Source of the DNA: Candidatus Obscuribacterales bacterium
GTDB taxonomy: Bacteria; Cyanobacteriota; Vampirovibrionia; Obscuribacterales; Obscuribacteraceae
Assembly: GCA_038322035.1 (NCBI GenBank)
Contig: JBBQFO010000001.1
Span: 17,366-81,365, forward strand
Direction of reading: 5' to 3'
Length of the DNA stretch: 64,000 nucleotides
This document shows, piece by piece, positions 33,284-58,703 of the stretch. The position numbers were made by a program, and so were the translations under genes. The notes beneath the pieces were generated by a model. The model searched no databases. It saw only the letters and a program-made list of their open reading frames with translations, and was not told the origin of the DNA. Positions within the stretch are counted from its first letter, which is position 1. Each line of letters starts with the position of its first letter.

Positions 33284-33784
33284 GGTGGTGTGGAAACAAA
33301 ATTATCTATTGGCAGTGCTGGATAATTTTTTGACTTCCACACTCTTTGTGCATTAACTGTGCAGTGCCTCACTGCATACGGTGCGCACTTTTCGATCAAG
33401 CACCTTTGAGTCGGTCCTCTGACTGATCACCCGATGCTCCAGTACCCCGCTGAACTCCCTTGTTCACAAGCATTTGGTGCGACGTCTGTCGCTTTCGTTC
33501 CAAGCCACTACTATTGTTCATTGATGTGCGTGTTCGTTGCGTAGTCTTTTCTTGCGCGCTCGCGTCAAATTCCATCTGTGCTTTTCGTGGAAATTTTTTC
33601 AATGCGATGACACGAAAACGCGCATGCACGAAAACTTTTATGATGATCTTATCTTCCGCAAGCCGCGCTAACGTCGCAAGTGAGTCGGGCTGCGCACTTC
33701 ACCAGTGACTCAATGCACATTGCATGTTGCAATAAGGCATGTAAACAGAATTTGTGTTTTGCATTGTTGCAAAGGATATATTGT

Positions 33785-40009: not shown

Positions 40010-40034
40010 ACCGCACCATTGTCGGCTCACAACT

Positions 40035-40062
40035 GCACCGGGATTGGTATCACTCCCGGTGC
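40035..40062 (+). terminator. Hairpin between the nicotinamidase-like and vWA genes (weak terminator/attenuator)
   Basis: Perfect 9-bp stem GCACCGGGA/TCCCGGTGC with a 10-nt loop, followed by CTTATTCG. Confidence 0.45.
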
Positions 40063-40097
40063 CTTATTCGACTCTATTGATAAGGAAGGTGAATACC

Positions 40098-40958: not shown

Positions 40959-40981
40959 ACCTGCGCTCCGTGTTCTTGGTT

Positions 40982-41014
40982 GTGGACCGGCGGATTTCCG
41001 CTGGTCCACTTTTT
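40982..41014 (+). terminator. Canonical Rho-independent terminator between the vWA and PP2C genes
   Basis: 12-bp stem GTGGACCGGCGG-attt-CCGCTGGTCCAC (one G-U pair) followed directly by TTTTT. Confidence 0.75.
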
Positions 41015-41055
41015 CACCTTTAAGAGCCGGATGCGCGATCGAACAGGAGGAACGC

Positions 41056-41922
41056 ATGGAATTACCTTTCAGTCTATCGGGTGGCACTTTTCCCGGTTAC
41101 AAATCGACGGGTACAGACATACCTAAAGGTGGGCGCAATCAAGACAGTCTGATGGGTGTTATCGGAGATGGCTACATTGTTATCGCCGTCAATGACGGTT
41201 GCAGTGGTAATCCCGAACAACACTTGCAGTCAGAACTCGGAGCGCTCGCCGGTAGTCAAATTGTTTGCAGTGTATTTGCAGACATCATCGAATCGGGACA
41301 GCCACTATGGGAAACTGTCACCGATGAAATTGTCGATCAACTCAGCCTTATCGCCGTTGCCTTAAGTCACGGGCGCAAAGAGCGCCTTGAACATGTGGTT
41401 CGCAAATACCTGATGTTCACCAGCGTCGTAGCTGTGATTGGACCTGAGGAAACAACGATCGCCACCGTCGGTGATGGCTACTATGCAATTAACGGTGGTG
41501 ATTTGAAACGTATTGGCCCTTACCCGGATAATCAGCCTCCCTATCTCGGATACTTGCTCTACCCCAACAACTATCCTCGGGAATTGCTGACGTTTCAAAA
41601 GCAAGTGCAGCTACCTACCGCAGACTTGCAATCGTTGATCATGGGCAGCGATGGGCTGGGTGAAGTGGCGGCTAGCGCTAATAAACGTTTGCCCGGCAAG
41701 TCTAGCCTTGTTGGCTCTCTCACTTCGCTTTTGGACAATCCGCGGTTTTTCAGAGGCGGTAAGAATCCTGAGAACGGAGCGCTTGTACCATGGTTGCGGG
41801 GGTTGAACAGTTCAGTTAGCAGAATTGTTTTCAATCCGGGGAACGGCAAGCCCGATATCGAGTACTCGGCTCCACTGATCGAAGACGACTACACCTGCGT
41901 ACTTGTAAAACGCACGCTCTAA
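41056..41922 (+). CDS. PP2C-family Ser/Thr phosphatase (triad component 2)
   Basis: ATG with AGGAGG 5 nt upstream. Blocks 'GGRNQDS','IAVNDGCSG','IMGSDGLGE','EDDYTCVLV'. The ORF-track 5' extension (40759-41055) overlaps the vWA gene and crosses the terminator. Confidence 0.8.
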   Translation: MELPFSLSGGTFPGYKSTGTDIPKGGRNQDSLMGVIGDGYIVIAVNDGCSGNPEQHLQSELGALAGSQIVCSVFADIIESGQPLWETVTDEIVDQLSLIAVALSHGRKERLEHVVRKYLMFTSVVAVIGPEETTIATVGDGYYAINGGDLKRIGPYPDNQPPYLGYLLYPNNYPRELLTFQKQVQLPTADLQSLIMGSDGLGEVAASANKRLPGKSSLVGSLTSLLDNPRFFRGGKNPENGALVPWLRGLNSSVSRIVFNPGNGKPDIEYSAPLIEDDYTCVLVKRTL

Positions 41923-41955
41923 GTATGAGGGGACCAAAGCTCGAAAGGAGTCTGC

Positions 41956-43947
41956 ATGTCTCAGCACATGACTGTCTATATCGCCGGAAAGCCATACACA
42001 TTTGACCCCGATGATGTGTGGAAAGAAGGCGGCGAAGCTTACATATACAAATATGGAAGCGACGCGCTTTTGCGATACTATCGTCGCCCTGACGATATTA
42101 GGTTTGCGGGTACAACACCGGAGGACAGGCAAAGACAACACTTTGTCGAGCTGAGGCTCGAAGAGTTACAGAGAAAGCTGCCTGTCTTTCCAAAAAATCT
42201 ACCGGAACGCGTCGTCACGGACAGGGAACTAGTTTGGAACTCGATCGACCAGCGCAGTAGACCCAGAATCGTGGGCAGCATTGTTCCGTTGATACCAGAT
42301 GCAGTGACTTTGCACGAGCTCGCCTCGGCCAAATTCCGGCGCGAAAACACGATTGGCGACGTAGCGGTGATCGACATCCTCAAGGACTTGTATGCCACCG
42401 TATGCGGCGTGCATAAAGCTGATGCTGTCATCGGAGACTTCAACACCGAGAACGTGCTCGTTCAGCCGTCATTGCTCCGTGCACCTTTGGTCGATGCTCA
42501 CGCTATGCAGTTTGGATCCTACCTGTGCGCTACCTATACGGCACGTTACGTCGATCCACTGGTGGCTCGGTGGGCAGCCAGCAAGGTCCCGGGCGAACCT
42601 GGTAGCGTCGAGATGATCGGCAGGCATTCACCGCTCACGGACTGGTATGCCTACCACTTGATGTTCTGGGAAATGTGGTATGCGCCGCTCTATGGAGGCG
42701 TCTATAGACCGAAGACAGGTGCCACCATGGTCGAGTTCGAGGAGCGTCCATTTCACAGCCCCAGGCTCTCCGTCTTGCATCCCGATGTTGCCTATCCAAA
42801 GCGTGGATTTCAAGATTACCACACGGCACCACCAGAGATACTGGAGCACTATCGTAATCTTGTCACAAAGGACCTTCGCGCCCCTTTTCCCGAGAAGTTT
42901 CTCGACAACCTCCGAGTCGCATACGGTGGCACATACTTGGCCACCCACACGCCCGTACCGGCTGTCCCAGTCGGCATCTCTATTATCAGGTCAGGGCCTG
43001 CATCATCGACGTTGATGTTTGAGACCACAGGCACCATCCTTGATGCTGCTTATCACGGTGGTAGACTGCGCTTTCTCTGCTCCAAAGATGGTCGATTCTA
43101 TCGTGAAGGGGCGAGAACCAAGGGCGACCTCGACATCGGAAAGGGATCATTCAACCCTAAGGTTGCCTACATCATCCAGGGCGATAGCACGATACTCGCC
43201 AAGGAAGGCGGTAAGGCCACACTAATTGCACCAGGGGCAGCGCCACTACAGCTTGATGCAGAGCGCTATCGTCAGGGCAAGCCGGTTGTGGCTACCAACG
43301 AAAACTTCTACTACTGGGCCGGACAGGGTAAAGTTCGGCGCAAGCCGAAGCCTGATCCTCAACTAGCCATGTTCGTCACGCCACAACCAGTCGAAATCTG
43401 CGAAGCGCTGCAGGAGCAAACCCGCATTTGGGTTGGTCCCAAGTTTGGTTTTGCCTTCAGTGCTACCGCCAATTTCGCCAAGGCGTTTGTTTTCGATGCC
43501 GAAAAAGCCGGAAATCTGCCTGTGGACTTGGAACCGCTGTCAGGCAATATTGTGGCTATCCGCTGTTACTTCAGTGACGATCGGCTCTGGCTGTTCACAA
43601 CTAAGAAAGTGAACGGCAGCAACGTCAACAAATGCACGTTGATCGATAGCAACGGTAAGCGGCTTGCTGCTTCGAAAACGGTGGCCGATGGAGACGATTC
43701 TTGGCTCGGCTCAATTGACGGCAAGTGCGCAGCTCTGTTGCCCGCGCCAGGCGGGAAGATCGAAGCGCTGCTTTCCGTTACCGCAGACGGTGTGGTTCTC
43801 GTGCAACAATCAGGCGTCAAGCTATCAGGAAGCTCGGCCTTCGAAGGAACCGCGACATTGGTGAATGCTGATGACAACCTGTTCTACAGCCCCGATGGTT
43901 TATATGCCTGGAACAGCAACAGCATCAGGTTGATCAAAACATCGTAG
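41956..43947 (+). CDS. Ser/Thr protein kinase-like protein with ~330-aa beta-rich C-terminal domain (triad component 3)
   Basis: Gly-rich loop 'KEGGEAYIYKYG', catalytic-loop-like 'VHKADAVIGDFNTENVLV', DFG-like 'LVDAHAMQFG'. AAGGAG RBS. The C-terminal half has no motif I recognise. Confidence 0.75.
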   Translation: MSQHMTVYIAGKPYTFDPDDVWKEGGEAYIYKYGSDALLRYYRRPDDIRFAGTTPEDRQRQHFVELRLEELQRKLPVFPKNLPERVVTDRELVWNSIDQRSRPRIVGSIVPLIPDAVTLHELASAKFRRENTIGDVAVIDILKDLYATVCGVHKADAVIGDFNTENVLVQPSLLRAPLVDAHAMQFGSYLCATYTARYVDPLVARWAASKVPGEPGSVEMIGRHSPLTDWYAYHLMFWEMWYAPLYGGVYRPKTGATMVEFEERPFHSPRLSVLHPDVAYPKRGFQDYHTAPPEILEHYRNLVTKDLRAPFPEKFLDNLRVAYGGTYLATHTPVPAVPVGISIIRSGPASSTLMFETTGTILDAAYHGGRLRFLCSKDGRFYREGARTKGDLDIGKGSFNPKVAYIIQGDSTILAKEGGKATLIAPGAAPLQLDAERYRQGKPVVATNENFYYWAGQGKVRRKPKPDPQLAMFVTPQPVEICEALQEQTRIWVGPKFGFAFSATANFAKAFVFDAEKAGNLPVDLEPLSGNIVAIRCYFSDDRLWLFTTKKVNGSNVNKCTLIDSNGKRLAASKTVADGDDSWLGSIDGKCAALLPAPGGKIEALLSVTADGVVLVQQSGVKLSGSSAFEGTATLVNADDNLFYSPDGLYAWNSNSIRLIKTS

Positions 43948-44295: not shown

Positions 44296-44859
44296 TCAGA
44301 CCAGACTGATGCGTGGATCATTGAATCGACTCCAGTTTGATTTTTCAATCTGGCCTGTATGTTTATTTGTGTTTGTATCCTGATTGCAGGCTCCTTTGTG
44401 GACTTGAACGGTACAGCTCGGGACGAGGCTTAGAAGGCCAAGCACGGTTTCTAACACGCAATAGTTCGTGTTTACGCCGCAAGCGACGAACTGATCGATG
44501 CAGCAGCCCAAGTCTAAACATGATTCGATTACCTGGAGCGAGCCATCATTGTGTTTCTTTTCCGCTATCATTTGATTTTGATAGCCAGCTATGAGAGCCA
44601 TTAGCCTCTGCTGGGTGTGGCAGCCTAAGCACTCAAGCAAGACGATTCCTGCACCTTGTTGCCTCGCGTTCACCATTAAATTTGTGACAGCTGCCACAGT
44701 GTTTTCGTTCAAGCTTGCCGGAAATCGATCATCGAGCATGTCGACCACGACCAATGTGGCCGGTAAGTTGTTGGAGGAGACTGCTAGTCTTTGCTGTGCT
44801 TCAAACCAGATAGACCTTGCGTGCCTTTCAAACACGGTTGTTTTCCTTACTCTGGGCAC
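44296..44859 (-). CDS. Isochorismatase-fold cysteine hydrolase (nicotinamidase candidate)
   Basis: 'ATLVVVDMLDDRF' (Asp), 'AEKKHNDGS' (Lys), 'FVACGVNTNYCVLETV' (Cys). GTG start. Confidence 0.7.
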   Translation of the reverse strand: MPRVRKTTVFERHARSIWFEAQQRLAVSSNNLPATLVVVDMLDDRFPASLNENTVAAVTNLMVNARQQGAGIVLLECLGCHTQQRLMALIAGYQNQMIAEKKHNDGSLQVIESCLDLGCCIDQFVACGVNTNYCVLETVLGLLSLVPSCTVQVHKGACNQDTNTNKHTGQIEKSNWSRFNDPRISLV

Positions 44860-44977: not shown

Positions 44978-45262
44978 CTATTGCGAAGTCTCTACTTGCC
45001 CTGTCAGTCCACGTGTTTGCTGAGCCACTTTGAGCACTCGCTTTGGCAAACACAAGGCGGCGAACTTTGACCAAAGTTCTCCCTTTTCCGATGCAATTGC
45101 CTCGACGTAATTCTTATGCGCCGCTTTGAAGTGGGTGTTGAATTCGGCACAGAGAGATTCGAATTGTTGCTGGTCTAGTGCCAGCAACAATATCAACATG
45201 GCGCGAGGAGATTGATCGCCTCCGCCGCTTGCAAACGAGGCAAGATAAGTTGCCAGATTCAT
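44978..45262 (-). CDS. Hypothetical 94-aa protein within the NAD operon
   Basis: ATG at 45262 ('MNLATYLASF') is preceded by AAGAGGAA. The longer ORF-track start overlaps the upstream gene. No motif recognised. Confidence 0.5.
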   Translation of the reverse strand: MNLATYLASFASGGGDQSPRAMLILLLALDQQQFESLCAEFNTHFKAAHKNYVEAIASEKGELWSKFAALCLPKRVLKVAQQTRGLTGQVETSQ

Positions 45263-45311
45263 GGTTTGTTCCTCTTGATCTTGACCTGATGAAGCCTGAC
45301 CGCACGCCGGA

Positions 45312-46163
45312 CTAACAAGCATTCATCGCTCGAGCCCGATTGATGATCAATCTGTGATCGAAGGCGATGTCCTGGGTTAACAACCAGTCCGTTTCGACAA
45401 TCTCCAAACTCTCCGCATCGTCTGCAGCCAGCATGTTTGCGTAGATCTCGTGTTCCCGATGAGCCGGGACGAACCAAGCGTAACCATGGTCAACTACTTG
45501 CTGCCGGGAGTCACGACGTGGGCCTGAGCGCACGTCCACGAGAACGAGTTCATCAGGCGAGACGATTACGTGCGTTTCTTCTCCGGCTTCTCTCGCACCG
45601 CACTCATCAACCGTTTCCAACTGGCAGAGCAGGAAGCCTCCAGGCAAAGACCACTTTCCAGCATCCGGGTTGTGTTTGCGCTTGATCACGAGGATCTTTT
45701 TGCCACCTTCAAGAAAGATGGCTACAGATGAAGTAGTGTCGGCCTTGGCGAAGCGATACGTGTATAAGTCACTCCAGTTCTGCCCCAGAAGTGATGGCAC
45801 CTCGCCTGCATGGGCAAGCTGGAAAGATTTCTCATTGAGCAGCTTGAGAGCTGCCCAGAGACGGTCACTTTCCTCCTCGTCAGTGACCAATGCGTCGACG
45901 ACTACAATTGGCTTCATGCCTCGCTGATACACTTTCTCAACTGCATCAAGAAGCGTTTGGGCAGTAACAGCGCCGGCGATAAACACGATGCGCGGTCCAC
46001 CCCGACCCAGCGGAGGAAGGCGCTTGGTGTTTTTACCAACGGCGACGTGAACGCCTGATTTCTCACACAAAGCGGCAAGCTCTATGCCCGTGGCTGCATT
46101 TTGATTATCACCAGTAATGGAAGCAACTGTCGATACTAATAGCAGTGAGTATTTGAGTTTCAT
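45312..46163 (-). CDS. Fusion protein: degenerate (Cys-less) isochorismatase-like N-domain + Nudix hydrolase (ADPR-pyrophosphatase-like) C-domain
   Basis: Nudix box 'GGFLLCQLETVDECGAREAGEETHV' preceded by 'GKWSLPGGF'. The N-terminal 'IVFIAGAVTAQTLLDAVEKVYQRGMKPIVVVDAL' resembles the C-terminal half of the isochorismatase fold, with Gln where the nucleophile Cys sits. Confidence 0.7.
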   Translation of the reverse strand: MKLKYSLLLVSTVASITGDNQNAATGIELAALCEKSGVHVAVGKNTKRLPPLGRGGPRIVFIAGAVTAQTLLDAVEKVYQRGMKPIVVVDALVTDEEESDRLWAALKLLNEKSFQLAHAGEVPSLLGQNWSDLYTYRFAKADTTSSVAIFLEGGKKILVIKRKHNPDAGKWSLPGGFLLCQLETVDECGAREAGEETHVIVSPDELVLVDVRSGPRRDSRQQVVDHGYAWFVPAHREHEIYANMLAADDAESLEIVETDWLLTQDIAFDHRLIINRARAMNAC

Positions 46164-46237: not shown

Positions 46238-48259
46238 CTAGTTGGCACTAATGCTCTGTGCGTGATCCATAGCCGCGTACTCGCGCATCGTGGCAAGCTC
46301 TTCTCCGTATCCCCCGGAAAGAATGGGTGAGCGCCGCCACGTACGCGGATCCAGATTGCGCGTGTCGCAGTGCAGGGCGGGCGCCAGTCGTTCCCGTTTC
46401 CACTGGTTGATGCTCCACTTCGTGAAGAACTTGTTTACCCAGTCGCTAATCTGCAGAGGTGCATACTGTGCGAAGCTGACGCGAATAAGCTGATAGCACT
46501 CGATTGGCGAGCGATTGTTTTCGATCGCCTCCTCTTCGATGGCATTCAGCACGTCGTAAGGCATCAAGTCTTTCTCGTCTGTCTGCGCCTGCTCGAGTGG
46601 ACGAAGTTCTGCCGTTGGTTGCTGCTTGGTGATGTAAATCAACTCTGGAATTGGACCAACTGCGACTGGACCTTCGTTCTGCAACCAGAGCAGCCACCAC
46701 TTGAGGAAGCATTTATCGATTCCTGCCACTGGCGATAGACCACCGGCAGTGTCACCGTCCATGGTGCAATAGCCGACTGCCCCTTCTGAGCGATTGCTCG
46801 TCGATAGAAGCAGCATGCCGAAGATGTTAGCGAGAAGCCAAATCATTGGTGCGCGCACGCGAGCTTGAACGTTCTGTAAGGGAATGTCGTCTTGCTGCCA
46901 AGTCAACTCTCGGCCGATTACCTTTTCGGCAAGCTTGATGTATAGACGGACAATTGGCTCAATGTTGAGCGCGAAGAATCTAGCACCGACGGACTCCGCC
47001 ACTTTCTTGGCGGCATTGCGCGTGGTGCGTGAACTTTGCTTGGTGGCCTGGTAGGCGCAAACCAACAAACGATTAACCAGTTGCTCCTTTGTCATGCACC
47101 TGTCGAGACCCTTGATGTGAGCCAGCTTGGCCTTGAAACCATCCAGTCCAAGGTCGGCGACACCGAAGTCCACCATCAATTTTACCTGGCAAGCCACTGC
47201 GGCGGAATCGGCACCACCACTAATTGAGAGCATGAAGCCGTTCGACATGCTCTTGCGCAGGTAGTCGAAAAGTCCAAGCGGAATAACCCGCGAGAATTCT
47301 TCTTCCTTGATTCGAACACTGGTCTCCCAGGGCTCCTGAATGATTGGAGCCTGAGCTTCGGGGTGCAGGGGTGGGAAAGTGAAATCAATCTCCACACAGC
47401 GCTCATCTTGCTTGCCCGTGATCTCAGGCTTGAAGCTGCCAATGCGAGATTGCATCATTCGTGTGTGCTCGATGTCCACGACCGCTGTGGTGAGCACGTG
47501 ATTGTGATATGAGAAGCGCGGGCCAATGGCGGCGAACTTGCCAGCTTGAGCGATGAGGACGTCACCATCGTAGATGGCTCGACCGGCTTCGTTGCCGATC
47601 AAGTTGACGAAAATGTAGGTGCAGCCGAAGGCTCTTGAGCCCTCCAGCACAAGTCGATTTCGCGTCTTCACTTTAGCGAAACTGAAGTGACTGGCTGACG
47701 GATTGATAATGACATCAACAGCTATTCCGACCAGATGTGTGCCGTCTCGCTTGCCTTTCCATGCGCCTTCGCAGATTTCGAAACCGAGTGTTATGTCGCC
47801 GACGCGGAAGTACAAATCACCAATCAGGTAAGTCTGCCCATCCTTTTCGAACTGCTCGACCAGGTCTTCGGGCCAGGCTTCGAACTGCCGAGCCTCATAG
47901 TGAATGCCGTCGTTTGCCAGCGCCTTCTTGGCGACGAAACCGCAGATGGTGCCGTCTACAACCACTGCAACGCAGTTGTAGATTTTGTTCTTGTGCAAAA
48001 TCGGCAATCCGAATGAGACCACCATGCCGTGCGTCAGCGGCAGAAGTTCCTGCAGCATCTTCCATGCCCGTTCGCGCAGATCCGGGCGAAAGAAGTCGTC
48101 TTCGCAACCATAGCCCGTAGTGCACAGCTCAGGCAGGCCGAGGATCGTCACACCTGCCGCTCTTGCTTCGGCAATGGCGTTTTGAATGTTGAGCCGGTTA
48201 TTTGCCCAACCAAACGGAGTCTGATTAAGGGCAGCACCGGCAACTTTGATCAGTTTCAT
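46238..48259 (-). CDS. nadE: Glutamine-dependent NAD+ synthetase (CN-hydrolase + NAD synthetase domains)
   Basis: N-terminal nitrilase-type domain ('GLPELCTTGY','GFEICEGAW'). PP-loop 'SISGGADSAAVA'. The 673-aa length is typical of the fused glutamine-dependent form. Confidence 0.9.
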   Translation of the reverse strand: MKLIKVAGAALNQTPFGWANNRLNIQNAIAEARAAGVTILGLPELCTTGYGCEDDFFRPDLRERAWKMLQELLPLTHGMVVSFGLPILHKNKIYNCVAVVVDGTICGFVAKKALANDGIHYEARQFEAWPEDLVEQFEKDGQTYLIGDLYFRVGDITLGFEICEGAWKGKRDGTHLVGIAVDVIINPSASHFSFAKVKTRNRLVLEGSRAFGCTYIFVNLIGNEAGRAIYDGDVLIAQAGKFAAIGPRFSYHNHVLTTAVVDIEHTRMMQSRIGSFKPEITGKQDERCVEIDFTFPPLHPEAQAPIIQEPWETSVRIKEEEFSRVIPLGLFDYLRKSMSNGFMLSISGGADSAAVACQVKLMVDFGVADLGLDGFKAKLAHIKGLDRCMTKEQLVNRLLVCAYQATKQSSRTTRNAAKKVAESVGARFFALNIEPIVRLYIKLAEKVIGRELTWQQDDIPLQNVQARVRAPMIWLLANIFGMLLLSTSNRSEGAVGYCTMDGDTAGGLSPVAGIDKCFLKWWLLWLQNEGPVAVGPIPELIYITKQQPTAELRPLEQAQTDEKDLMPYDVLNAIEEEAIENNRSPIECYQLIRVSFAQYAPLQISDWVNKFFTKWSINQWKRERLAPALHCDTRNLDPRTWRRSPILSGGYGEELATMREYAAMDHAQSISAN

Positions 48260-48316: not shown

Positions 48317-49801
48317 CTAGGCGCCGCGCGCAAGAAGCTGGAGCACCTGCTCGACGAGAATGTGGGATATTGGTCTAACTTTGAGGAAATCGTCAGCCAA
48401 TCTGACCGCATTTGGATGACTATCGCTGACGATCACTTCGTTGAATAGAGGCTCACCGCTCAGGTCTACTGCCGTGCGCAACCGCTCCAGCGCACCATCG
48501 GGAAAGATTCCGTGCGAAGCGACGAATCGAATCTTTTTGCAGCCGGAACCGACTACACCAGCGCTTCCGTTGCGGTAGCCTACGGCCGCCTCAATGGCTG
48601 TGGTGCCGCGCCTGATCATATCGTCGAAGAGGTCGATATCGCGCCCCGCCACATCACCAAGCACGCCCAGTAATTCCGTTTCTGAGCCACTCTTGCGATC
48701 TTTGAGGGCGAAGGCGGCTTGCCAAAATAAATCACTGCTGACGCCGCGAGCTTTCAGTCCTCTATTGATGTCTTTGACCAGCGACTCGGCCCACTTGCCG
48801 CGACCGGCATCGGTGGTGCAGATCCGTCCGTTGAGGCTGTCTTTTTCTTTCACCATATCCATGATGATGCGCTTGACGGAATACACGTGACTGGTGCGTA
48901 CGCGGTCAGAGAAGTATTGAGGGATTCCTTCCGAGTGCAAGTCATTGAGTACGATGCGATTGCCCAGAGGGCAAAGGGGAATCGACGAGAGTAGACGAGC
49001 ACGATAGGCTGCTTTCACAGCTTCATGCAGTTCAGGCTTGCCGCGCTCCATCGTCGAGTAGCCAAAGTATGGAATGACGATAGTCATGCTCAAGGCATCG
49101 GCCTCGAACACTGCGTTGGCTAGGACGTACAAGTCCAGTGTCTCGGTGTGATCGATGGTACCGCCAATGATGACAACATCCCGACCGGCGACAGAATCGC
49201 CGACTGCAGTGACGATGCCGGCTTTGTCGCGGAAACACACACCGGCTTCGAAGTCAGCTAGCGCCTCAAACTGCTTCAGCATGTAGCCGTAACTTTTCGT
49301 CGCTAGAAGCACCGGTTTGCCGCGCGATTCGAACAAGTCAATGGCCGCGCGTCGGGAGATTGGTTTGGCAGCTTGTCGACGCGCCACGGGCTTGTCGTAG
49401 AATGGCATCGCCGTCGATTGCGGATCAATCTGTATAAAGCGGTTTCCCATCGCTGTCTCAGGAATTGCCGAGAGCATGCGAACCTGAACTCGCTGAAGGA
49501 AGAGTTCCTGTCTGGTTTTGCCTCTACTTTCCGGACTCACTACGGTCAGTCCAAATGCGCCCTCAACGACAACCAGACTGGCGATGTCGAAGAGCTCGAA
49601 GGTCGCATCCGCATCTGAGAAGTTGAAATTACCAACCACTACCGCTTCGTTGTACCCGATTGGTGTGACAAGTTGTTGATGAATCTCGTGATCCGGGAAT
49701 GCCTCTTGCAAGACCTCACCGCAGATGGTGCCAGGTTTGGCTAGCAATCGGGTGGCGATAGCTGCGGAGCCACCCGCTGTCAGGAAAATTATCTTTTGCA
49801 T
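48317..49801 (-). CDS. Ribose-phosphate pyrophosphokinase (Prs)-family enzyme with additional degenerate N-terminal half-domain
   Basis: ATG at 49801 with GGAGAA upstream. Residues ~190-494 carry Prs blocks 'VIPYFGYSTMERGK','NDLHSEGIPQYF','LFDDMIRRGTTAIEAA'. Residues 1-~130 look like a second, degenerate Prs N-half ('FPDHEIHQQL','ELFDIASLVV'). Confidence 0.75.
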   Translation of the reverse strand: MQKIIFLTAGGSAAIATRLLAKPGTICGEVLQEAFPDHEIHQQLVTPIGYNEAVVVGNFNFSDADATFELFDIASLVVVEGAFGLTVVSPESRGKTRQELFLQRVQVRMLSAIPETAMGNRFIQIDPQSTAMPFYDKPVARRQAAKPISRRAAIDLFESRGKPVLLATKSYGYMLKQFEALADFEAGVCFRDKAGIVTAVGDSVAGRDVVIIGGTIDHTETLDLYVLANAVFEADALSMTIVIPYFGYSTMERGKPELHEAVKAAYRARLLSSIPLCPLGNRIVLNDLHSEGIPQYFSDRVRTSHVYSVKRIIMDMVKEKDSLNGRICTTDAGRGKWAESLVKDINRGLKARGVSSDLFWQAAFALKDRKSGSETELLGVLGDVAGRDIDLFDDMIRRGTTAIEAAVGYRNGSAGVVGSGCKKIRFVASHGIFPDGALERLRTAVDLSGEPLFNEVIVSDSHPNAVRLADDFLKVRPISHILVEQVLQLLARGA

Positions 49802-49842
49802 ATTTTCTCCAGTGCTCGTGATAGGAGATAAGAGAGAAGATC

Positions 49843-51342
49843 TCACGCTTCGGATTGAAGAAAAGCGAGGCGCTCTTCTTCGCGCTTGCCGCGGTAGACG
49901 TCCATGTAGTGCTGAATAAGCGGCGACACTTCGACGCGGGTGTATTTCCCCCACGTCTCATTGGCACGCTTGCCCTGTTCGACGAGCGACTCGTTGTAGA
50001 CGATGCGGCCCTGCTTGACCAACTGAACATAGAGGGGAATGCCATCCACAACCTCGGACTTGTCGGCGATATACATCACCTCGCCAATGCCGTAGACGCG
50101 TATAGTGCCGGGGTAAGACTCTTTGCCCGGGCTGTTCGAGAACTTGATGTTCGGGTTACCGTCGGTTGCGGACCGCTTGAAGGCAGCCGACACCGTGTCA
50201 CGATGAACCTTACGCCAGAAGTAACCGCCTGCTCCCGGGAAGAGGTTGTTTGCTTCTTCTCCTGTCTGGGCAACGAAGAAATCCTCCACCTCAATGCATT
50301 TGGTTGGATTGACCTCGTCTTCGTAAACAATGGTGCGGTCAGGAGTGATGCCAGCTTTGCGCATCGCCAGAAAGTACTGAACACATTGCGCGGCGATTTC
50401 TCCAGAGTCGATGCGACCGCCCGCCTTGATCGCTTCTGGATGCGCCAGGAGCGCTTTGATGAAGTTGCGCAAGCCGATTGTTTCCGCGTCGATTAGATCG
50501 CAGAGGAGCTTGCTGTCCGGCACTCGGGTGAGCGCCAGGTCCATCATCTCGTACTCGGCTTCGGACAGCGACTTGTCGAGCCGTTGGTTTGAGCACATCA
50601 GCTCGTGCCCCAGTGTGCCAATTGACTTGAACAGATCCGGCCACATGAATTCAGCCGTGTCATTCGAAGTCAGAATCGGTTTGCCGCCTCCGCCAACGAT
50701 CATGGCGTGCAGCAAGATGATGTTGTTCAGCTCGAGCACCGCAGCGCGCAGACCGAACTCGGCAAAGTTATGCGAAGATTGGCTCATCAGGCGAGTCTTA
50801 GTCGCCTGGATGACAGGCGCGAAGTAGCGGCACATGGCCGGCTCAATCAACGTGATCAGTCCGCCAATGCCTTCAAATGACATTGCCGGCACGTTTTTGA
50901 GCATCGTCTGCCCGCCGGGGAAGCCCCAGACATCGATGTCGAGGTCGATGTTGCGGCGGCGTGGATTGCGCGCCAGGACGTCGTCCCACAGTTCATGCGG
51001 GAACGCCTTGACGTTGGCCTCGGTGCTGCACCAGTAGCGTGCGATCTCAATGTCGCCGCGCTTAAGGGGCTGATTGAACCACTGCGCAAGCATCGCTTCG
51101 TGACCGGCCATGATCAACTGGTCACCGGCACCCGGCTCGTCCAGCCCGCGCCGGAAGGTGAGATGATAGGAAGCAGGCTTGAGCGAAAAATCAACCGATG
51201 CCGCACTCATGGTGCGTTTGTAAGTGTCGGTGGCCGTGATCATGCCACCGAGAATGAACATCCGGCGGTAGAATTCAGCAATCATTTCGGCGCGTTTTGC
51301 CTTGACGGCTTTTTCTATGCGTCCATTTTTGGCTTTACTCAT
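49843..51342 (-). CDS. Type II phosphoribosyltransferase of the NAPRT/NAMPT family
   Basis: ATG at 51342 with AGGAGA upstream. Blocks 'ATDTYKRTM','FAEFGLRAAV','SIGTLGHELM'. By eye it is closer to the long (~490 aa) nicotinate PRTases than to NadV. The substrate cannot be decided from sequence alone. Confidence 0.75.
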   Translation of the reverse strand: MSKAKNGRIEKAVKAKRAEMIAEFYRRMFILGGMITATDTYKRTMSAASVDFSLKPASYHLTFRRGLDEPGAGDQLIMAGHEAMLAQWFNQPLKRGDIEIARYWCSTEANVKAFPHELWDDVLARNPRRRNIDLDIDVWGFPGGQTMLKNVPAMSFEGIGGLITLIEPAMCRYFAPVIQATKTRLMSQSSHNFAEFGLRAAVLELNNIILLHAMIVGGGGKPILTSNDTAEFMWPDLFKSIGTLGHELMCSNQRLDKSLSEAEYEMMDLALTRVPDSKLLCDLIDAETIGLRNFIKALLAHPEAIKAGGRIDSGEIAAQCVQYFLAMRKAGITPDRTIVYEDEVNPTKCIEVEDFFVAQTGEEANNLFPGAGGYFWRKVHRDTVSAAFKRSATDGNPNIKFSNSPGKESYPGTIRVYGIGEVMYIADKSEVVDGIPLYVQLVKQGRIVYNESLVEQGKRANETWGKYTRVEVSPLIQHYMDVYRGKREEERLAFLQSEA

Positions 51343-51499: not shown

Positions 51500-52117
51500 C
51501 TAGCGATAGAGCCGATGTCGCACAGCGATGTTGCGGCAGTGAAAATTCGGGAAGAGATAGTCGGCGGAACGAGCGCGTCCGCTTTTTATCCAACTGCGGA
51601 TCAGTGTGCTGGAGATGTCACTACCGGGGCAGTCTATGATGTTGAAACGAGCTCCTGAGGGGAGCAGTTTGGCGATGATTTGATGGTCTGCATTCGCCGA
51701 ATCTCGAGGAGCGACGAGTAACTCACTGAGTTTGAAGATCTCGTCAGCTTCCATCCAGTGATTAATTGGCTCGATATTGTCCAGCCCGACGATCAAGAAG
51801 AATTCTGCATCGTCACCATACTGCGCCTTGAGAGCACGCAGTGTGTCGACGGTGTAAGATTTGCCCGGTCTGTCGATCTCGATGCGACTGGCGCGGAAAT
51901 GCTTTGCCCCTTTCGTGGCAGCTTTGACCATGCGGAAGCGAATTTCTTTTGGAGCGACATCGTTCTTGTGTGGTGGATCTCCGTTCGGAATGAACAGCAC
52001 AAAGTCCAGATGGAACTGATCCCAAGCACATTGCGCAACTTGCATGTGCCAGAGATGGATGGGATTGAAGGTGCCCATCGAAAGACCGATTCGCAACTTC
52101 TTCTTGCGAACCCGCAT
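51500..52117 (-). CDS. nadD: Nicotinate/nicotinamide-mononucleotide adenylyltransferase
   Basis: 'GTFNPIHLWH' ((H/T)xGH motif) and C-terminal 'ISSTLIR'. ATG at 52117 with GAAAGGG upstream is preferred over the TTG at 52180. Confidence 0.85.
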   Translation of the reverse strand: MRVRKKKLRIGLSMGTFNPIHLWHMQVAQCAWDQFHLDFVLFIPNGDPPHKNDVAPKEIRFRMVKAATKGAKHFRASRIEIDRPGKSYTVDTLRALKAQYGDDAEFFLIVGLDNIEPINHWMEADEIFKLSELLVAPRDSANADHQIIAKLLPSGARFNIIDCPGSDISSTLIRSWIKSGRARSADYLFPNFHCRNIAVRHRLYR

Positions 52118-52410
52118 ATGCGCCCTTTCTGCCAGGTCTTCGCCTGGTCCAATAGCTGGCGAGCCTTTCCGTTTGCTCAAGCAGCAAGCGGAAAAAAAAC
52201 AGATTGTTACTTGAAGTGCGTCTTAGAGAGAGTCTCGTTATATTGGGTTGTTGGAGGAAAGATGTTATGAGCTTACTTAATAACAAGCAGCACAAGCAAA
52301 TATTCTGGATGATTTGTCTCAGTCCTGAACGATTAATACGCAGTGATTACTACTTAAATCTAATTCCACTCACGTTCAGCGCTAGCGGAATTCGCGTGTA
52401 ATTATTGTTT

Positions 52411-52441
52411 TCAAAAGAACGGCAAAGCATCACTGCTTTGC
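52411..52441 (-). terminator. Terminator overlapping the stop codon of the GGDEF gene
   Basis: Stem GCAAAGCA/TGCTTTGC with the TGA stop in the loop. On the minus strand it is followed by CGTTCTTTTG. Confidence 0.55.
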
Positions 52442-54079
52442 TGGCGCGGCAATCGGTCCTTTGACGACTCTATTTCGTCCAGTCTGTTTAGCGTGCAGCA
52501 AAGCACCATCAGCGGCATTAACCCAATCTCCCAATTCCATGTTTGCTGAGTCGAGCATGGCCACGCCAGCGCTGAAGCTGGAGTGAAATTTCTCATCCTG
52601 CGCTGGGTGCTCAATTTCTGCGAAATCGGTTAGTAACCTTTCCGCTAAAGCGATAACTTCTGATTCACGCAAATCTTCCACGATAATGACAAACTCTTCC
52701 CCGCCGTAGCGACCGACCAGGTCTGATTTGCGCATTCTTCTTCTGAGCAAATTTGCCAAAGAAACAATCACTCTGTCGCCGACTGGATGTCCATATTTAT
52801 CATTGATTGACTTGAAGCTATCTATATCGATGATAATCAATCCGATACTTTTTTCTGGTTGTCTTACTTTGCGTGCTAACACCATTTTTGCCATACTCAT
52901 GAATGCTGAGTGTGTCAACAGTTTTGTCAGCCCATCTCTGTGGAGAAGAGACTTTAGAAATCTCGCCCTCTCAAGTTTGGCTGCCACTGTCGATAAGAGC
53001 AATGATGGCGGCACTGGTTTGATTAAATACTCATCGCCGCCAGCTTTCGCAGCTCGAATTTTGGCGTCGATTTTGGATTCTGTCGTCACAAATATGATTG
53101 GCAACGTGGCATAAGCCTCATTTTGGCGGAGATATTTGGCAAGTTCATACCCACTCACATCAGGGAGCATTATGTCCAACATAACAAGATCTGGTTGGTG
53201 GCTTGTTAGCGCCGCATCGAAAGTTTTTTCATTGCTGCATATTTCGATATCGTATCCGGCTGCCGACAAAACCACACGCACAAATTCTGATTGATAAGGG
53301 TCATCTTCGACGTAGAGCACTCGATAATCAGGAGCTTTGGGCACTTCCAGCAAAAAACGCATACGCTCAGCTAAGTCTTCTAAAACGAAAGGTTCCTCAA
53401 AAAATCCATCTGCTCCGCAGTGAATTGCTTGCACCTTATCTAGAAATCCCGCTTGCTGACCGACGATCAAAGCGGCCTGCGCATCACTTTCCGCTAAGCT
53501 TCTGAATTTTTCAACAAGTTCATAGCCGGACCCACCATCTAGTGGAATCGATACGATTAAGCCATCGAAAGTTTTCGAAGCCATCAGTGCGGCCGCCTCG
53601 GAATAATTGAGGGCGAACTCAATTCGAGCTGCATGCTCTTTGAATAAATCGTGAAATTTTGCGCGACGATTAGGGTCATGATCTACAACCAGAATATCTC
53701 TCGATTCTGTGTCTTCATCACGACTGACTTTGCTCTTTCCTGGTACGAGTTGCTCTCCCTCGGCAAAAGCGTTGCGCGCAGATTCGACAAATTTCTGCAA
53801 TTTCTGCCCAATTGATGCTGACGCGACACCTGCACTTTCCACGCAGTTTTCACAATATTGCTCTGCTTCTTTTCCTAAACTCGTCAGCTCAGGCATTCCG
53901 TAAATACCACCTGAACCTGCCAACCAGTGGAAGTGATGCCTGATCTGCTTGATGATCACTAATGGCTCTGACTGATCGTTCATCTGCGCGATCAAACTTT
54001 CAATTTGCTGTAACCGTTCGCGAGATTGAACCAAATATCGACGCTTGAGATCGTTATAAGCATTCTGCCATTCAATCAT
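52430..54079 (-). CDS. HPt - degenerate REC - REC - GGDEF diguanylate cyclase
   Basis: HPt-like 'HHFHWLAGSGGIYG'. REC1 'DGLIVSIPLDGGSG' has Ser at the acceptor position. REC2 is canonical ('DLVMLDIMLPDVSG','LIKPV'). The GGDEF domain has 'GGEEF' with the I-site 'RKSD' five residues upstream. Confidence 0.9.
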   Translation of the reverse strand: MIEWQNAYNDLKRRYLVQSRERLQQIESLIAQMNDQSEPLVIIKQIRHHFHWLAGSGGIYGMPELTSLGKEAEQYCENCVESAGVASASIGQKLQKFVESARNAFAEGEQLVPGKSKVSRDEDTESRDILVVDHDPNRRAKFHDLFKEHAARIEFALNYSEAAALMASKTFDGLIVSIPLDGGSGYELVEKFRSLAESDAQAALIVGQQAGFLDKVQAIHCGADGFFEEPFVLEDLAERMRFLLEVPKAPDYRVLYVEDDPYQSEFVRVVLSAAGYDIEICSNEKTFDAALTSHQPDLVMLDIMLPDVSGYELAKYLRQNEAYATLPIIFVTTESKIDAKIRAAKAGGDEYLIKPVPPSLLLSTVAAKLERARFLKSLLHRDGLTKLLTHSAFMSMAKMVLARKVRQPEKSIGLIIIDIDSFKSINDKYGHPVGDRVIVSLANLLRRRMRKSDLVGRYGGEEFVIIVEDLRESEVIALAERLLTDFAEIEHPAQDEKFHSSFSAGVAMLDSANMELGDWVNAADGALLHAKQTGRNRVVKGPIAAPAKQ

Positions 54080-56402: not shown

Positions 56403-58703
56403 ATGACAGCTGAAGTGAATAATCAAACTTCTGTCCATGAAGTTTATACCCGTACTTCCGTAGATAGTTCCGCATCGAATGACCATCTCCTGGCCTCAAG
56501 CGGTTATCAGGCACCGAAGCCTGGTTATCTCGACTCAGATATACAGCCACCGCCGCCAACACCAACGGGAATCAATGAGTATTCAGGCGATCCTAATTCG
56601 AATACAGCACAACCTTCAGTTGATACTGCATTTAGTGGCGCCGCGACGCCAGCGCCGGGAGCCTGGCGAGCCAGTCCATTTCTGAATGGTGCAGATAGCG
56701 CATTGGCTACACAATCGACGACTGCCGGAAGCAAGGCGACAGCGGACGCTGCAGGCGACGGACAGTCCGCTAATCAACCATGGAAAGGGGCACCGTACCA
56801 GATAGGTGCAGACTTGCCGCTGGCGAACCCTGCGCCTGCTCAAACCGGCGATCCAAATGCAGTTCAGCAGCAATGGCATCCCAAACCAGGGCCGAGTTGG
56901 AGCAGTCCAGGACCAGCTCCTGTCTCCGATGGATTGGGCGGCACTGGCACTACGCCCCAAGGCAACAGTCTAATCAGCTCTTCTCTTCAAGCCAATATAC
57001 AGCAGAGTCTAGTACCTCATTATGGCTTTGATGGATTGAGTGGACAGCTTGGTTATTTGAGCATGGGAGGCGTTGGTGGTGCTATCGGAAAAACAGTGCT
57101 TTCCAGCGTTCTGAACAGGAATGCTTGGTGGTTAGCCAATACCAGTGGCGATCTGTCACTTGGTCTTGCGCCTAAACCAGATTTTGGACCGACGGAAACA
57201 TCAGGCAAACTTGGAGATTTGCGCAGCGGCTTCATTGAAGGAGCCGCTTTTGCCGCTTTGTCATCTGGAATTTTGGATAATTCCCTTGACCGTTTCTTTA
57301 ATCAAAAGGATCACAAAGATAGCTGGTTCTTATCGGGATTGGCTGTGCCAATGGCCTTTTCCTCATCTGCTGATCTGAAAACCAAGATTATGTTAGGTGT
57401 GGGCAGTATCGTTGTAAGCAAAGGTTTAGACAGCTTGCTTCCTGCAAGTGACCACAAAGCGATTAGTCAAATATTTGCTCCCACTGGGATTGAGGCTGTG
57501 TCTATGGGAGCTGCTTGGGCGCTTCCAGCTCCAGCTGATTTGAAATTGCCTATTGTTGGTGGCACCTGGTTATTTAACAGAATGATTAACCTCGATGCAG
57601 GAGACTCATTAGCAGTATCCGGTGTAATTGCTGCTGGCGGTTTACTGCTGAAGGGGCTCAAGGTGGCCGAAAGTCTGCCTGTGTTGCCGTTTTTAGCACT
57701 CGATGGAGCGATTTGGCTGGGCAGCAGGCTCTTGCATAAAGATCAGCCTGACGACCAGGCCATAAACGAAGCTGCAAACAGATTGGTGTCTGAAGACAAG
57801 TCCACCCGAAGCGCGAAATCAATGACCGATGCTATTGATAAATATGTTCAGTTGGGCAACGACAAAGAGTTTGTGCTCAGAGCTTATTACGAAGAGTATC
57901 TAACTAAAACCAACTCTCAATTTGACGATATGCTGACGGCATATCGTGGTGCCATGATTCTGGGCACTTCTTTTGGTGAAAGCAGATTGAGCCACGGCAC
58001 CACAATACTTCCTGCGGAAAAGCCGACATACATATTGGCTGATCAAAATCTGGATTTAGGAGGGCAAGCGTTGAGAGGATTGATTATCGCCAACGTCAAT
58101 GCCGAGCGCGCGAAACTTGAGACTTTAAAATTAGTCGGTCAATCCAATCATGGTTCCAAAGTTGATAAATCTGAAGTCGATGGTATTACTCAGATTCAAG
58201 CGAGAACAAATGCTGATATCGCCAAGATTTATGGCAAGCATGATCTGACCAAAGCACTTTCAGATCTGACTGACTTTCAGAAGAGTAATCAGATGGGATT
58301 TGCGAAGTTAGAAATCGATCTGGTTTCAGGACTCTCATCAAACAGGCAGAGTGAGCCTCAATTTCAAGCCAAACTGTTTAGAGACTATGCTCTACTTTGT
58401 CTTACATATGCTTCCGTAAGCGCAGAAAAGTCATCTGATAACGCCGCAGCAGTTCTGTATGGAAGTGATAGCGGACGGCAAATTCCATATCCCGATGGAG
58501 CTCCTCGTGGCTTTGACGGAGCACTCGATGCAATTAAACTTGCCGCGCAGCTTGCTCCAGATAATCCGGACAATCAACAATTGCAAGCGATTGCAGCTGA
58601 TTTGGAAAAGCGAATTCCGGCAGCCCAACAAGTTCAGGATGCTAATCCTTTGTACAATCCACTCGCGATCACGGACTCGAGTAACACCTTCAAATATTCG
58701 TAA
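56403..58703 (+). CDS. Large hypothetical protein: disordered Pro/Gly/Ala-rich N-terminus, hydrophobic Gly-rich central segments, helical C-terminal domain
   Basis: 766-aa ORF. Hydrophobic segments 'GAAFAALSSGIL','FLSGLAVPMAF','IMLGVGSIVV','LAVSGVIAAGGLLL','LPVLPFLALDGAIWLG'. No catalytic motif recognised. Confidence 0.6.
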   Translation: MTAEVNNQTSVHEVYTRTSVDSSASNDHLLASSGYQAPKPGYLDSDIQPPPPTPTGINEYSGDPNSNTAQPSVDTAFSGAATPAPGAWRASPFLNGADSALATQSTTAGSKATADAAGDGQSANQPWKGAPYQIGADLPLANPAPAQTGDPNAVQQQWHPKPGPSWSSPGPAPVSDGLGGTGTTPQGNSLISSSLQANIQQSLVPHYGFDGLSGQLGYLSMGGVGGAIGKTVLSSVLNRNAWWLANTSGDLSLGLAPKPDFGPTETSGKLGDLRSGFIEGAAFAALSSGILDNSLDRFFNQKDHKDSWFLSGLAVPMAFSSSADLKTKIMLGVGSIVVSKGLDSLLPASDHKAISQIFAPTGIEAVSMGAAWALPAPADLKLPIVGGTWLFNRMINLDAGDSLAVSGVIAAGGLLLKGLKVAESLPVLPFLALDGAIWLGSRLLHKDQPDDQAINEAANRLVSEDKSTRSAKSMTDAIDKYVQLGNDKEFVLRAYYEEYLTKTNSQFDDMLTAYRGAMILGTSFGESRLSHGTTILPAEKPTYILADQNLDLGGQALRGLIIANVNAERAKLETLKLVGQSNHGSKVDKSEVDGITQIQARTNADIAKIYGKHDLTKALSDLTDFQKSNQMGFAKLEIDLVSGLSSNRQSEPQFQAKLFRDYALLCLTYASVSAEKSSDNAAAVLYGSDSGRQIPYPDGAPRGFDGALDAIKLAAQLAPDNPDNQQLQAIAADLEKRIPAAQQVQDANPLYNPLAITDSSNTFKYS

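Follow-up and report, generated by a model that had tools for sequence, protein, structure and literature searches.

In a 64,000-nucleotide stretch of a Candidatus Obscuribacterales genome (contig JBBQFO010000001.1, positions 17,366 to 81,365; hereafter the window), the gene for an atypically long Prs-like protein (ribose-phosphate pyrophosphokinase family) lies directly downstream of the gene for a divergent type II phosphoribosyltransferase (PRTase). We consider it likely that this pair is the centre of a chromosomal Preiss–Handler operon for the salvage and recycling of NAD in this Melainabacteria/Obscuribacterales genome. This functional assignment draws chiefly on the context of the operon and on an exchange of genes in situ, the divergent PRTase standing where an otherwise orthologous operon has PncB, the canonical nicotinate phosphoribosyltransferase (NAPRT). 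The operon is ordinary in function and both enzymes are uncharacterised variants; new here are a FLAG motif kept only in a duplicated N-terminal domain of the long Prs, and a large PRTase family lying below every curated threshold tested. What the sequences show directly is which genes are present and in what order, their homologies, the duplication, the pattern of motifs and the displacement of PncB; all substrate specificities and the pseudo-dimer geometry proposed below are predictions.

The operon and the displacement of PncB

An earlier note on this DNA had described a 494-residue Prs-like protein encoded 41 nt downstream of a 499-residue type II PRTase, and both open reading frames (ORFs) are present as described on the minus strand. 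The PRTase gene, upstream of the Prs-like gene, ends in a TGA codon at 49845-49843, giving a spacer of exactly 41 nt, and a GGAG Shine–Dalgarno sequence stands about 6 nt 5′ of the Prs-like ATG (at 49801). Seven genes on one strand, spaced by 41–157 nt or overlapping, form the cluster, in the order nadD – PRTase – prs – nadE(Gln) – Nudix – small ORF – isochorismatase-like:

51500-52180, minus strand: nadD, nicotinate-nucleotide adenylyltransferase, first gene of the cluster (NCBIfam and Pfam)
49843-51342, minus strand: divergent type II PRTase gene, 499 aa, putative nicotinate phosphoribosyltransferase
49802-49842, minus strand: PRTase/prs intergenic spacer, 41 nt, with GGAG ribosome-binding site (direct sequence reading)
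48317-49801, minus strand: Prs-like gene, 494 aa from ATG
46238-48259, minus strand: nadE, glutamine-dependent NAD synthetase, 673 aa (Pfam CN_hydrolase and NAD_synthase)
45312-46163, minus strand: Nudix hydrolase, 283 aa (Pfam NUDIX at aa 145-267, REx2EE box intact)
44978-45322, minus strand: ORF of 114 aa, overlapping the Nudix stop by 11 nt
44296-44859, minus strand: isochorismatase-like hydrolase, 187 aa, candidate nicotinamidase (Pfam Isochorismatase E 0.0013, below threshold)

NadD is a firm assignment, exceeding the cut-offs of NCBIfam NF000840 (161 bits; cut-off 150) and TIGR00482 (141; cut-off 112) and matching Pfam CTP_transf_like. A context survey of 80 genome loci carrying the PRTase family, mostly metagenome-assembled genomes (MAGs) or metagenome contigs, has NadE next to the PRTase or close by in about 47, with the order NadD–PRTase–Prs–NadE in most of the Obscuribacterales/Melainabacteria loci surveyed. 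In the closest public locus, L001 (‘Candidatus Melainabacteria’ MAG contig PLZS01000031.1), the genes are ordered as in the window and the PRTase is 92% identical; NadD occupies the same position there and in loci L091, L085, L092 and L093. In the Gemmataceae, the PRTase often lies beside NadE without NadD within the fetched flank.

The comparison that carries most weight is with loci encoding the long Prs. All five others examined read NadD – canonical NAPRTase (PF17767 and PF04095, 404–437 aa) – long Prs – NadE – isochorismatase, and a sixth, incomplete contig reads long Prs – NadE – isochorismatase. Between L091 and the window, NadE is 80% identical, NadD 77%, the long Prs 66% and the Nudix protein 58%, and L091 has PncB in the slot held in the window by the divergent PRTase. 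This is an in-situ non-orthologous displacement of PncB, and it is the main reason for proposing that the PRTase acts as a nicotinate phosphoribosyltransferase. Three combinations were found, PncB with the long Prs, the divergent PRTase with the long Prs, and the divergent PRTase with a short Prs; because both PRTases and both Prs forms are exchangeable around NadD and NadE, a shared intermediate is implied, for which 5-phosphoribosyl-1-pyrophosphate (PRPP) is the simplest candidate.

The proposed route would start with nicotinamide released by NAD-consuming enzymes, which an isochorismatase-type nicotinamidase would convert to nicotinate. The divergent PRTase would join nicotinate and PRPP to give nicotinate mononucleotide (NaMN), probably with ATP coupling through His246; NadD would then make nicotinate adenine dinucleotide (NaAD), and the glutamine-dependent NadE would make NAD. 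In the recycling arm, the Nudix hydrolase probably cleaves ADP-ribose (ADPR) to AMP and ribose-5-phosphate (R5P), from which the long Prs, as a Class IV-type enzyme, would form the PRPP that feeds the PRTase. A scheme of this kind was drawn in 2008, with ADPR converted by a Nudix enzyme to R5P and by Prs to PRPP, and nicotinamide passing through PncA, PncB, NadD and NadE (PMC2330246). Dedicated prs paralogs in NAD salvage operons were already described in that study, together with this way of recycling ADPR (Rodionov et al. 2008, PMC2330246), and known operons include pncB-nadD-nrtR-nadE of cyanobacteria and prs-nadV of Shewanella and Acinetobacter (PMC2330246). As in those operons, a salvage PRTase is clustered in the window with NadD, NadE and a second, dedicated Prs; unlike them, the operon has no NrtR regulator, its Prs is a duplicated 494-aa form, and its PRTase is neither a canonical PncB nor NadV.

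The Nudix protein is a candidate ADP-ribose pyrophosphatase: its Nudix domain has weak matches among models and structures of NrtR and of the Nudix domain of NadM (2qjt, 2qjo and 3gz5 among them). In the window protein the Nudix domain is C-terminal and is accompanied by no recognisable winged helix, so the architecture is not that of NrtR. Residues 1–140 form an N-terminal domain without family match that is conserved together with the Nudix domain (58%) in L091:12110-12973; a 283-aa gene in L085, considered as the ortholog, is unrelated. The 187-aa isochorismatase-like ORF carries VVDMxxD and GVNTNYCV motifs by eye. A second candidate nicotinamidase lies 4.3 kb away on the opposite strand:

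38891-40009, plus strand: candidate PncA, 372 aa (nicotinamidase-like motifs IIDNQVDF, WPVHC and MLIIAGQALSHCV)

This protein could possibly serve as the PncA of the operon; it matches NCBIfam NF008623 (PncA) at E 1e-4, far below the cut-off, and has no Pfam match, and PDB sequence searches returned nothing for either it or the 187-aa protein. It opens a plus-strand block of four genes (38891-43947) that continues with a 304-aa protein of no family, a PP2C-like phosphatase and a 663-aa protein of no family. In related clusters, isochorismatase-family genes follow nadE or are fused to it. The NadE of L091 (L091:8571-11390) is a 939-aa fusion of CN_hydrolase, NAD_synthase and a C-terminal isochorismatase domain, the last of which the 673-aa NadE of the window lacks; the fusion, which would join a NAD synthetase to a putative nicotinamidase, ties nicotinamide deamidation to the same operon. 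L091 also has a 150-aa ORF without Pfam match between nadE and the Nudix gene, with no detectable similarity to the 114-aa ORF of the window, which itself had no family match in Pfam, NCBIfam, PHROGs or PADLOC searches.

Further rearrangements were seen among the surveyed loci. NadD and the PRTase are fused in proteins of 748–765 aa (P0140 at L090:6001-8247, P0187, P0207 and P0213), with the adenylyltransferase N-terminal in L090, where a short Prs and then a NadE of 958 aa come after the fusion. Short STMER-type Prs proteins beside the PRTase (L002:9588-10715, L003, L004, L026, L029 and L090:8343-9479) carry a variable insertion of 40–70 aa between their N- and C-domains, and such inserted forms reach 370–390 aa in the Obscuribacterales.

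A long Prs with a duplicated N-terminal half

The earlier note contrasted the 494 residues of the Prs-like protein with a canonical length of about 315, which is indeed that of E. coli Prs (315 aa), and it placed the Prs sequence blocks in the C-terminal ~300 residues; in agreement, only residues ~190–491 are covered when the protein is aligned with Prs family models and with Prs sequences of solved structure. The motifs that it quoted for the two proteins are all present. We divide the chain into three parts:

49397-49801, minus strand: extra N-terminal domain, aa 1-135, a duplicated Prs N-half (hhalign, alignment A1)
49331-49396, minus strand: low-complexity basic linker, ~aa 136-157, variable in length and sequence in alignment A1 and of low predicted local confidence (pLDDT)
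48317-49330, minus strand: Prs core, aa 158-494, a full PRPP-synthetase fold of the STMER/Class IV type (Foldseek, motifs)

Profile–profile alignment of residues 1–135 with the protein’s own core gives a probability of 98.7% (E 3.6e-16; 26% identity over 115 columns), and the match includes a subfamily-specific segment, R(M/L)LS(A/S)IPxxxxGNR (SAIPxTxxGNR). The first ~130 residues had been called a decayed duplicate of a Prs N-half: the duplication is borne out, and the decay is not, for the domain is conserved over about 30 clusters of long forms (482–537 aa), with F35, D37 and E39 among many invariant positions.

The two halves have lost complementary elements. The extra domain is without the PYFGYSTMER RF loop and without the catalytic histidine, and it bears a FLAG motif, reading AFPDHE in the window and FPDGE in the family. 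The core of the long forms retains the catalytic elements, and its FLAG is degenerate, reading x-R-[DE]-x-x-G without FxDGE (FRDKAG in the window). FxDGE is kept in the single N-domain of every short relative examined except L032. In Class I PRPP synthetases (PRPS), the FLAG residue Glu39 contacts the N6 of the ATP adenine in the adjacent subunit of a bent dimer (bioRxiv 10.64898/2026.06.01.728777). From this cross-subunit contact, together with the complementary loss and retention of FLAG, we infer a fused pseudo-subunit: the pattern suggests that the duplicated half-domain completes the ATP site of the core. The long Prs arose when the N-half of a Class IV PRPS was duplicated within its gene, after which the core lost its adenine-contacting FLAG and the extra copy its catalytic loops. 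The extra domain would supply the FLAG glutamate in place of a neighbouring subunit across the bent dimer, yielding a single-chain pseudo-dimer.

The AlphaFold2 (AF2) model is well formed (pLDDT 85; predicted template-modelling score (pTM) 0.88), with the extra N-domain at a pLDDT of ~77–94 per 10-residue block and disorder only at the linker (135–156, pLDDT <50) and a flexible loop (249–259). Foldseek aligns ~340 columns of it as one complete Prs fold, with template-modelling (TM) scores, relative to the target, of 0.81–0.84 to E. coli and human PRPS. The pTM suggests compatibility of the model with a defined inter-domain arrangement.

An alternative is that the extra domain is a regulatory or oligomerisation pseudo-domain, resembling the PRPS-associated pseudoenzymes, that might act as a sensor for a nucleotide or for ADPR, or change how the enzyme assembles. 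Having neither RF loop nor catalytic histidine, the domain is not catalytic alone, and its retained nucleotide-contacting motif would fit ligand sensing equally well; pseudoenzyme formation has moreover been recurrent in the PRPS family (bioRxiv 10.64898/2026.06.01.728777). Like PRPSAP1/2, inactive Prs paralogs that assemble with PRPS, it is a catalytically incomplete Prs-derived module tied to an active Prs; unlike them, it is a half-domain fused in cis that keeps a substrate-contacting motif lost by the core. A FLAG that never varies in the extra domain and has degenerated in the core is the pattern expected of catalytic takeover, as against a single N-domain that keeps its FLAG in the short relatives, L032 excepted. 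We therefore regard a purely regulatory role as the less probable of the two, with an appreciable chance of being right.

The core itself is of the STMER type. Its motifs comprise the PYFGYSTMERGK loop, DLHSEG (His289), a catalytic loop with K367-D-R369 and the R5P loop DDMIRRGTTA; the STMER of PYFGYSTMERGK, the RF-loop motif, is invariant in long forms, as are the universal catalytic residues H289, K367, R369, D393 and D394. STMER is diagnostic of Class IV PRPS, one of which has been shown to make PRPP from R5P and ATP (bioRxiv 10.64898/2026.06.01.728777), and 74% of the species bearing a Class IV enzyme also carry a Class I gene (bioRxiv 10.64898/2026.06.01.728777). The window core shares with Class IV the STMER motif and the catalytic Lys, Arg and His, and its nearest relatives outside the long family, ~300-aa STMER-type Prs proteins that are 39–45% identical, have DDMIRTGGS R5P loops; the one context examined among these short relatives is beside a transketolase, outside any NAD cluster. 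It differs from Class IV, a ~300-aa two-domain chain with the FLAG glutamate in its own N-domain, in being a 494-aa, three-domain protein with a ~135-aa extra half-domain and linker, FLAG only in that half-domain, and the R5P loop DDMIRRG[ST]T; the words ‘tandem’ and ‘N-terminal extension’ do not occur in the Class IV preprint (bioRxiv 10.64898/2026.06.01.728777). From Class I (PrsA) it is separated by STMER in place of the ARQDR RF loop and RRGTT in place of the DTGGT R5P loop. Some long forms (P0022, P0024 and P0026) carry an insertion of ~25 aa, helical-looking, after the R5P loop (‘IPAELR…L…’; A1 columns 461–485). The R5P loops compare as follows:

Class I: DDMIDTGGT
Short STMER forms: DDMIRTG[GS]S
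Long forms: DDMIRRG[ST]T
P0030, basal long form: DDMLRTGTS
Adps-type proteins: DDICDGGRT

A single Thr→Arg is thus the sole change specific to the long forms. In a neighbour-joining distance tree of 31 sequences, which is a rough one, the long-form cores are one clade among STMER-type cellular Prs proteins, and the Adps-type proteins of phages FelixO1 and AhSzw-1 are on a separate branch. In bit score, E. coli Prs reaches 86 and the AhSzw-1 protein ~51, with the FelixO1 protein not listed.

A divergent phosphoribosyltransferase family

The PRTase scores below threshold with Pfam PF04095 NAPRTase (16.3 against 20.8), TIGR01513 (63.4 against 297) and TIGR01514 (24 against 270), and has no match to PF18127 (NAMPT_N). 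All 25 relatives sampled also lie below the NAPRT thresholds, yet the NAPRT models are their best match. Of the curated models tested, the Pfam N-terminal Prs domain is the only one passed by either protein of the pair; because both lie below whole-protein cut-offs, ‘NAPRT’ and ‘PRPP synthetase’ are to be read here as functional inferences. One of the earlier note’s two readings, an ordinary Prs + NAPRT pair, is essentially right about Prs and NAPRT, with a qualification on ‘ordinary’.

Residue conservation points to a NAPRT. The protein contains TDTYK, EFGLR, TSN, GTLGHE (the phospho-His motif), RIDSGE and GAGGYFWRKVHRD, and TDTYK, EFGLR, TSN, GT(I/L)GHE and R(I/V)DSG(D/E) are invariant across the family alignment A2. 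The NAPRT catalytic motifs (the Tyr of TDxY, EFGxR, TSN, GTxxH and RxDSGD) are all present and align to the NAPRTs of E. faecalis, yeast and Yersinia. The serine of TSN aligns with that of the NAPRT ‘ATSN’ motif, a position that we take to be that of Asp219 in NAMPT. The D219S mutant of NAMPT accepts nicotinate. The spacing from TSN to the histidine is 20 residues in the window PRTase, 18 in a canonical PncB (that of L085) and ~30 in two phage Namat-type proteins.

Searched against 177,635 distinct PDB sequences, the A2 family profile matched NAPRTs only (2f7f, 1vlp, 3os4, 4yub and 1yir); Foldseek with the AF2 model ranked E. faecalis NAPRT structures first, with NAMPTs (Xcc and human) just behind and TM scores of ~0.42; it bears out the type II PRTase fold and does not clearly split NAPRT from NAMPT. 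The best sequence and fold matches are thus to Family II NAPRT (E. faecalis 2F7F/4MZY, human 4YUB; TIGR01513), with which the PRTase shares EFG(L/T)R, TSN, GTxxH(E/S), R(I/V)DSGD and a role beside NadD and NadE. It differs in its low identity (~18%), in a C-terminal phosphate-binding element GxGG…HRD, as in NAMPT, in place of GIGT, in an N-terminal helix of ~30 aa and in a conserved KFSNSPGKES motif. The earlier note would have counted it against its more unusual reading had both proteins fallen firmly within housekeeping PrsA and PncB clades; as neither lies in a housekeeping clade, that is not literally what was found.

The family is tightly conserved and has more than 1200 clusters at E ≤ 0.001, the listed members being 55–70% identical, and ranges over Gemmataceae, other Planctomycetes and Obscuribacterales/Melainabacteria. 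Its members are often labelled ‘hypothetical protein’ in NCBI and ‘nicotinic acid phosphoribosyltransferase’ in JGI. The family is uncharacterised and appears to be a nicotinate phosphoribosyltransferase in these lineages.

Contrary evidence, other substrates and the wider locus

Several observations weigh against the Preiss–Handler assignment. The PRTase is filed in no curated NAPRT family, so that the claim is one of NAPRT-like function, and the Prs falls short of TIGR01251 (104.7; cut-off 113) and far short of the equivalog models. Since the Foldseek E-values for NAPRT and NAMPT are about equal, specificity is not decidable from the fold; the AF2 model of the PRTase is moreover poor at residues 176–220 and 373–382 (pLDDT <50 at 373–382), which form the active-site entrance, the region needed to judge a Namat-like clamp, so we make no structural statement there. 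The C-terminal segment GAGGY[FW]W..VHRD, rich in aromatic residues, aligns without gaps to the ‘GS…TRD’ of NAMPT and Namat and not to NAPRT. The additional arginine in the R5P loop is invariant in long forms, and both nicotinamidase candidates, of 187 and 372 aa, are weak.

Some of these points would suit a nicotinamide phosphoribosyltransferase of the NadV/NAMPT kind, making NMN from nicotinamide and PRPP, with the neighbouring adenylyltransferase acting on NMN. Besides the NAMPT-type C-terminal element and the closeness of the Xcc and human NAMPTs in Foldseek, this alternative has in its favour a weak match of the PRTase to phrog_448, a nicotinamide PRTase (E 1.3e-10; PHROGs returned no match for the Prs), faint PF18127 matches in some relatives, and the existence of bacterial prs-nadV operons (PMC2330246). 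It is opposed by the tight and widespread linkage to NadE, which only the deamidated route needs, and by the fact that what the PRTase replaces in orthologous operons is PncB and not NadV. The adjoining adenylyltransferase scores above cut-off as a NaMN-specific NadD, the serine of TSN and its spacing to the phospho-His are NAPRT-like, the PDB sequence matches are all NAPRTs, and nicotinamidase-type isochorismatase genes occur in related clusters, one of them fused to NadE in L091. We judge a NadV/NAMPT-like activity improbable.

The other reading offered by the earlier note was a chromosomal counterpart of the phage NARP1 pathway, in which the long Prs would make ADPR pyrophosphate (ADPR-PP) and the PRTase would join it either to nicotinamide, which yields NAD, or to nicotinate, which yields NaAD for amidation by NadE. 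NARP1 is a two-gene phage module. Its Adps proteins, which pyrophosphorylate ADPR and not R5P, make up a clade of their own, and a Namat gene accompanies 97% of the Adps genes (bioRxiv 10.1101/2024.02.11.579819; PMC12774641). Namat prefers ADPR-PP over PRPP and has a NAMPT-like core and an adenine clamp, with a selectivity-clamp helix GSXΦ1XΦ2XΦ3TRD whose aromatic X residues at positions 3 and 7 contact adenine (bioRxiv 10.1101/2024.02.11.579819; PMC12774641). A bacterial NARP1 has been demonstrated in Paenibacillus foliorum (bioRxiv 10.1101/2024.02.11.579819; PMC12774641), so that modules of this kind do exist in bacteria. The likeness lies in adjoining Prs-family and type II PRTase-family genes that rebuild NAD from breakdown products (bioRxiv 10.1101/2024.02.11.579819; PMC12774641), and it extends to details. 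The phage Adps-type loop DDICDGGRT has an added arginine, as do the long forms; GGY[FW]W..VHRD aligns gap-free with the Namat helix GS[FY]TYQY[VM]TRD, with aromatic residues at two of three X positions; and in the Gemmataceae the PRTase is often flanked by NadE with NadD absent from the fetched flank.

As references for Adps and Namat we used the proteins of phages FelixO1 and AhSzw-1, chosen by the Namat signature and the Prs–PRTase pairing and known here from sequence. The signature fits FelixO1 (GSYTYQYMTRD) and AhSzw-1 (GSFTYQYVTRD); the window reads G-G-Y-F-W-R-K-V-H-R-D and its family GGYWWKLVHRD, departing from the signature at S2, Φ1 (aromatic), X3 (K/L) and T9 (H). Nor was a NAMPT-like core found, the PRTase having TSN rather than G[TS]D, no PF18127 and a sub-threshold PF04095; the Prs lies outside the Adps clade and its neighbour does not qualify as a Namat. 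The window proteins belong to different clades from those of NARP1, and they are no self-contained two-gene module, being embedded with NadD, NadE and a Nudix protein; canonical PncB and short Prs can each take the place of one partner. In AhSzw-1 (MG676225.1; L082:2869-5487), the gene carrying the signature was deposited as ‘nicotinate phosphoribosyltransferase’, and a 259-aa Prs-like gene is found two genes upstream of it; these two genes probably make up a NARP1 module, so far unrecognised, of a T5-like phage.

The operon evidence also opposes the making of ADPR-PP in the window. The long Prs is paired with canonical PncB in all five other loci, and the PRTase also occurs with short Prs proteins whose Class IV R5P loops are unmodified; the NadD::PRTase fusions, and NadD immediately upstream, favour a mononucleotide product. 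In the tree, the Prs core falls among STMER-type PRPS and not with the two phage proteins, and at the presumed nicotinamide-specificity position the PRTase has Ser and not Asp. A tblastn search of 50,697 phage records found no match to the PRTase and matches of ≤26% identity only to the Prs. A Nudix enzyme of the ADPR-binding NadM/NrtR subgroup would, within the operon, destroy ADPR. The R5P-loop difference, considered as a sign of ADPR use, was rejected as weak, since ordinary short Prs proteins can show the G→S/T change as well and P0030 keeps Thr. The NARP1-like proposal fails every sequence and context test run, and we hold it to be very improbable; its nicotinate variant, a ‘deamido-NARP1’, keeps a small probability through the added arginine, the aromatic-rich helix and the Gemmataceae gene order. 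In this variant the long Prs, with its added arginine and its extra nucleotide-contacting domain, would pyrophosphorylate ADPR, the PRTase would join ADPR-PP to nicotinate to form NaAD directly, and NadE would convert this to NAD, as a chromosomal counterpart of the phage pathway through the deamidated branch.

The surroundings of the Preiss–Handler operon are those of a chromosome, with flanking genes for a GGDEF response regulator, TPR proteins, a mannitol dehydrogenase and an OmpR-type regulator; PADLOC returned nothing relevant for 10 proteins in and around the cluster, and on that ground the locus is not a defence island. The operon is immediately preceded, at 52430-54079 on the minus strand, by the gene for a 549-aa protein with the architecture Hpt – receiver – receiver – GGDEF. 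One further feature marks its end:

52422-52441, minus strand: terminator-like hairpin where the GGDEF response-regulator gene upstream ends (consensus match only)

From this hairpin to 44296, the promoter/terminator scan found no terminator-like site on the minus strand, a scan within noise in that terminator-like sites are no more numerous than in shuffled sequence. An Rfam search of the whole window matched no NAD riboswitch or other RNA. Elsewhere in the window, ORFs without a Pfam family at E ≤ 0.001 lie at 33680-37855 (plus strand, 1391 aa), 56403-58703 (plus strand, 766 aa) and 26954-28411 (plus strand, 485 aa).

The pathway assigned here is a textbook one and leaves the view of NAD salvage unchanged; a Prs + PRTase gene pair alone is insufficient for inferring NARP1. 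The interest lies in the two enzymes. The long Prs presents a clean intragenic duplication with complementary loss, in which an inter-subunit FLAG element would have moved to a fused pseudo-subunit, and, if this is true, it is a single-chain model of the active site of the PRPS bent dimer. The PRTase family would be a natural architectural intermediate between NAPRT and NAMPT for studies of specificity, and recognising it as NAPRT would close an apparent gap in the NAD metabolism of Gemmataceae and Obscuribacterales/Melainabacteria.

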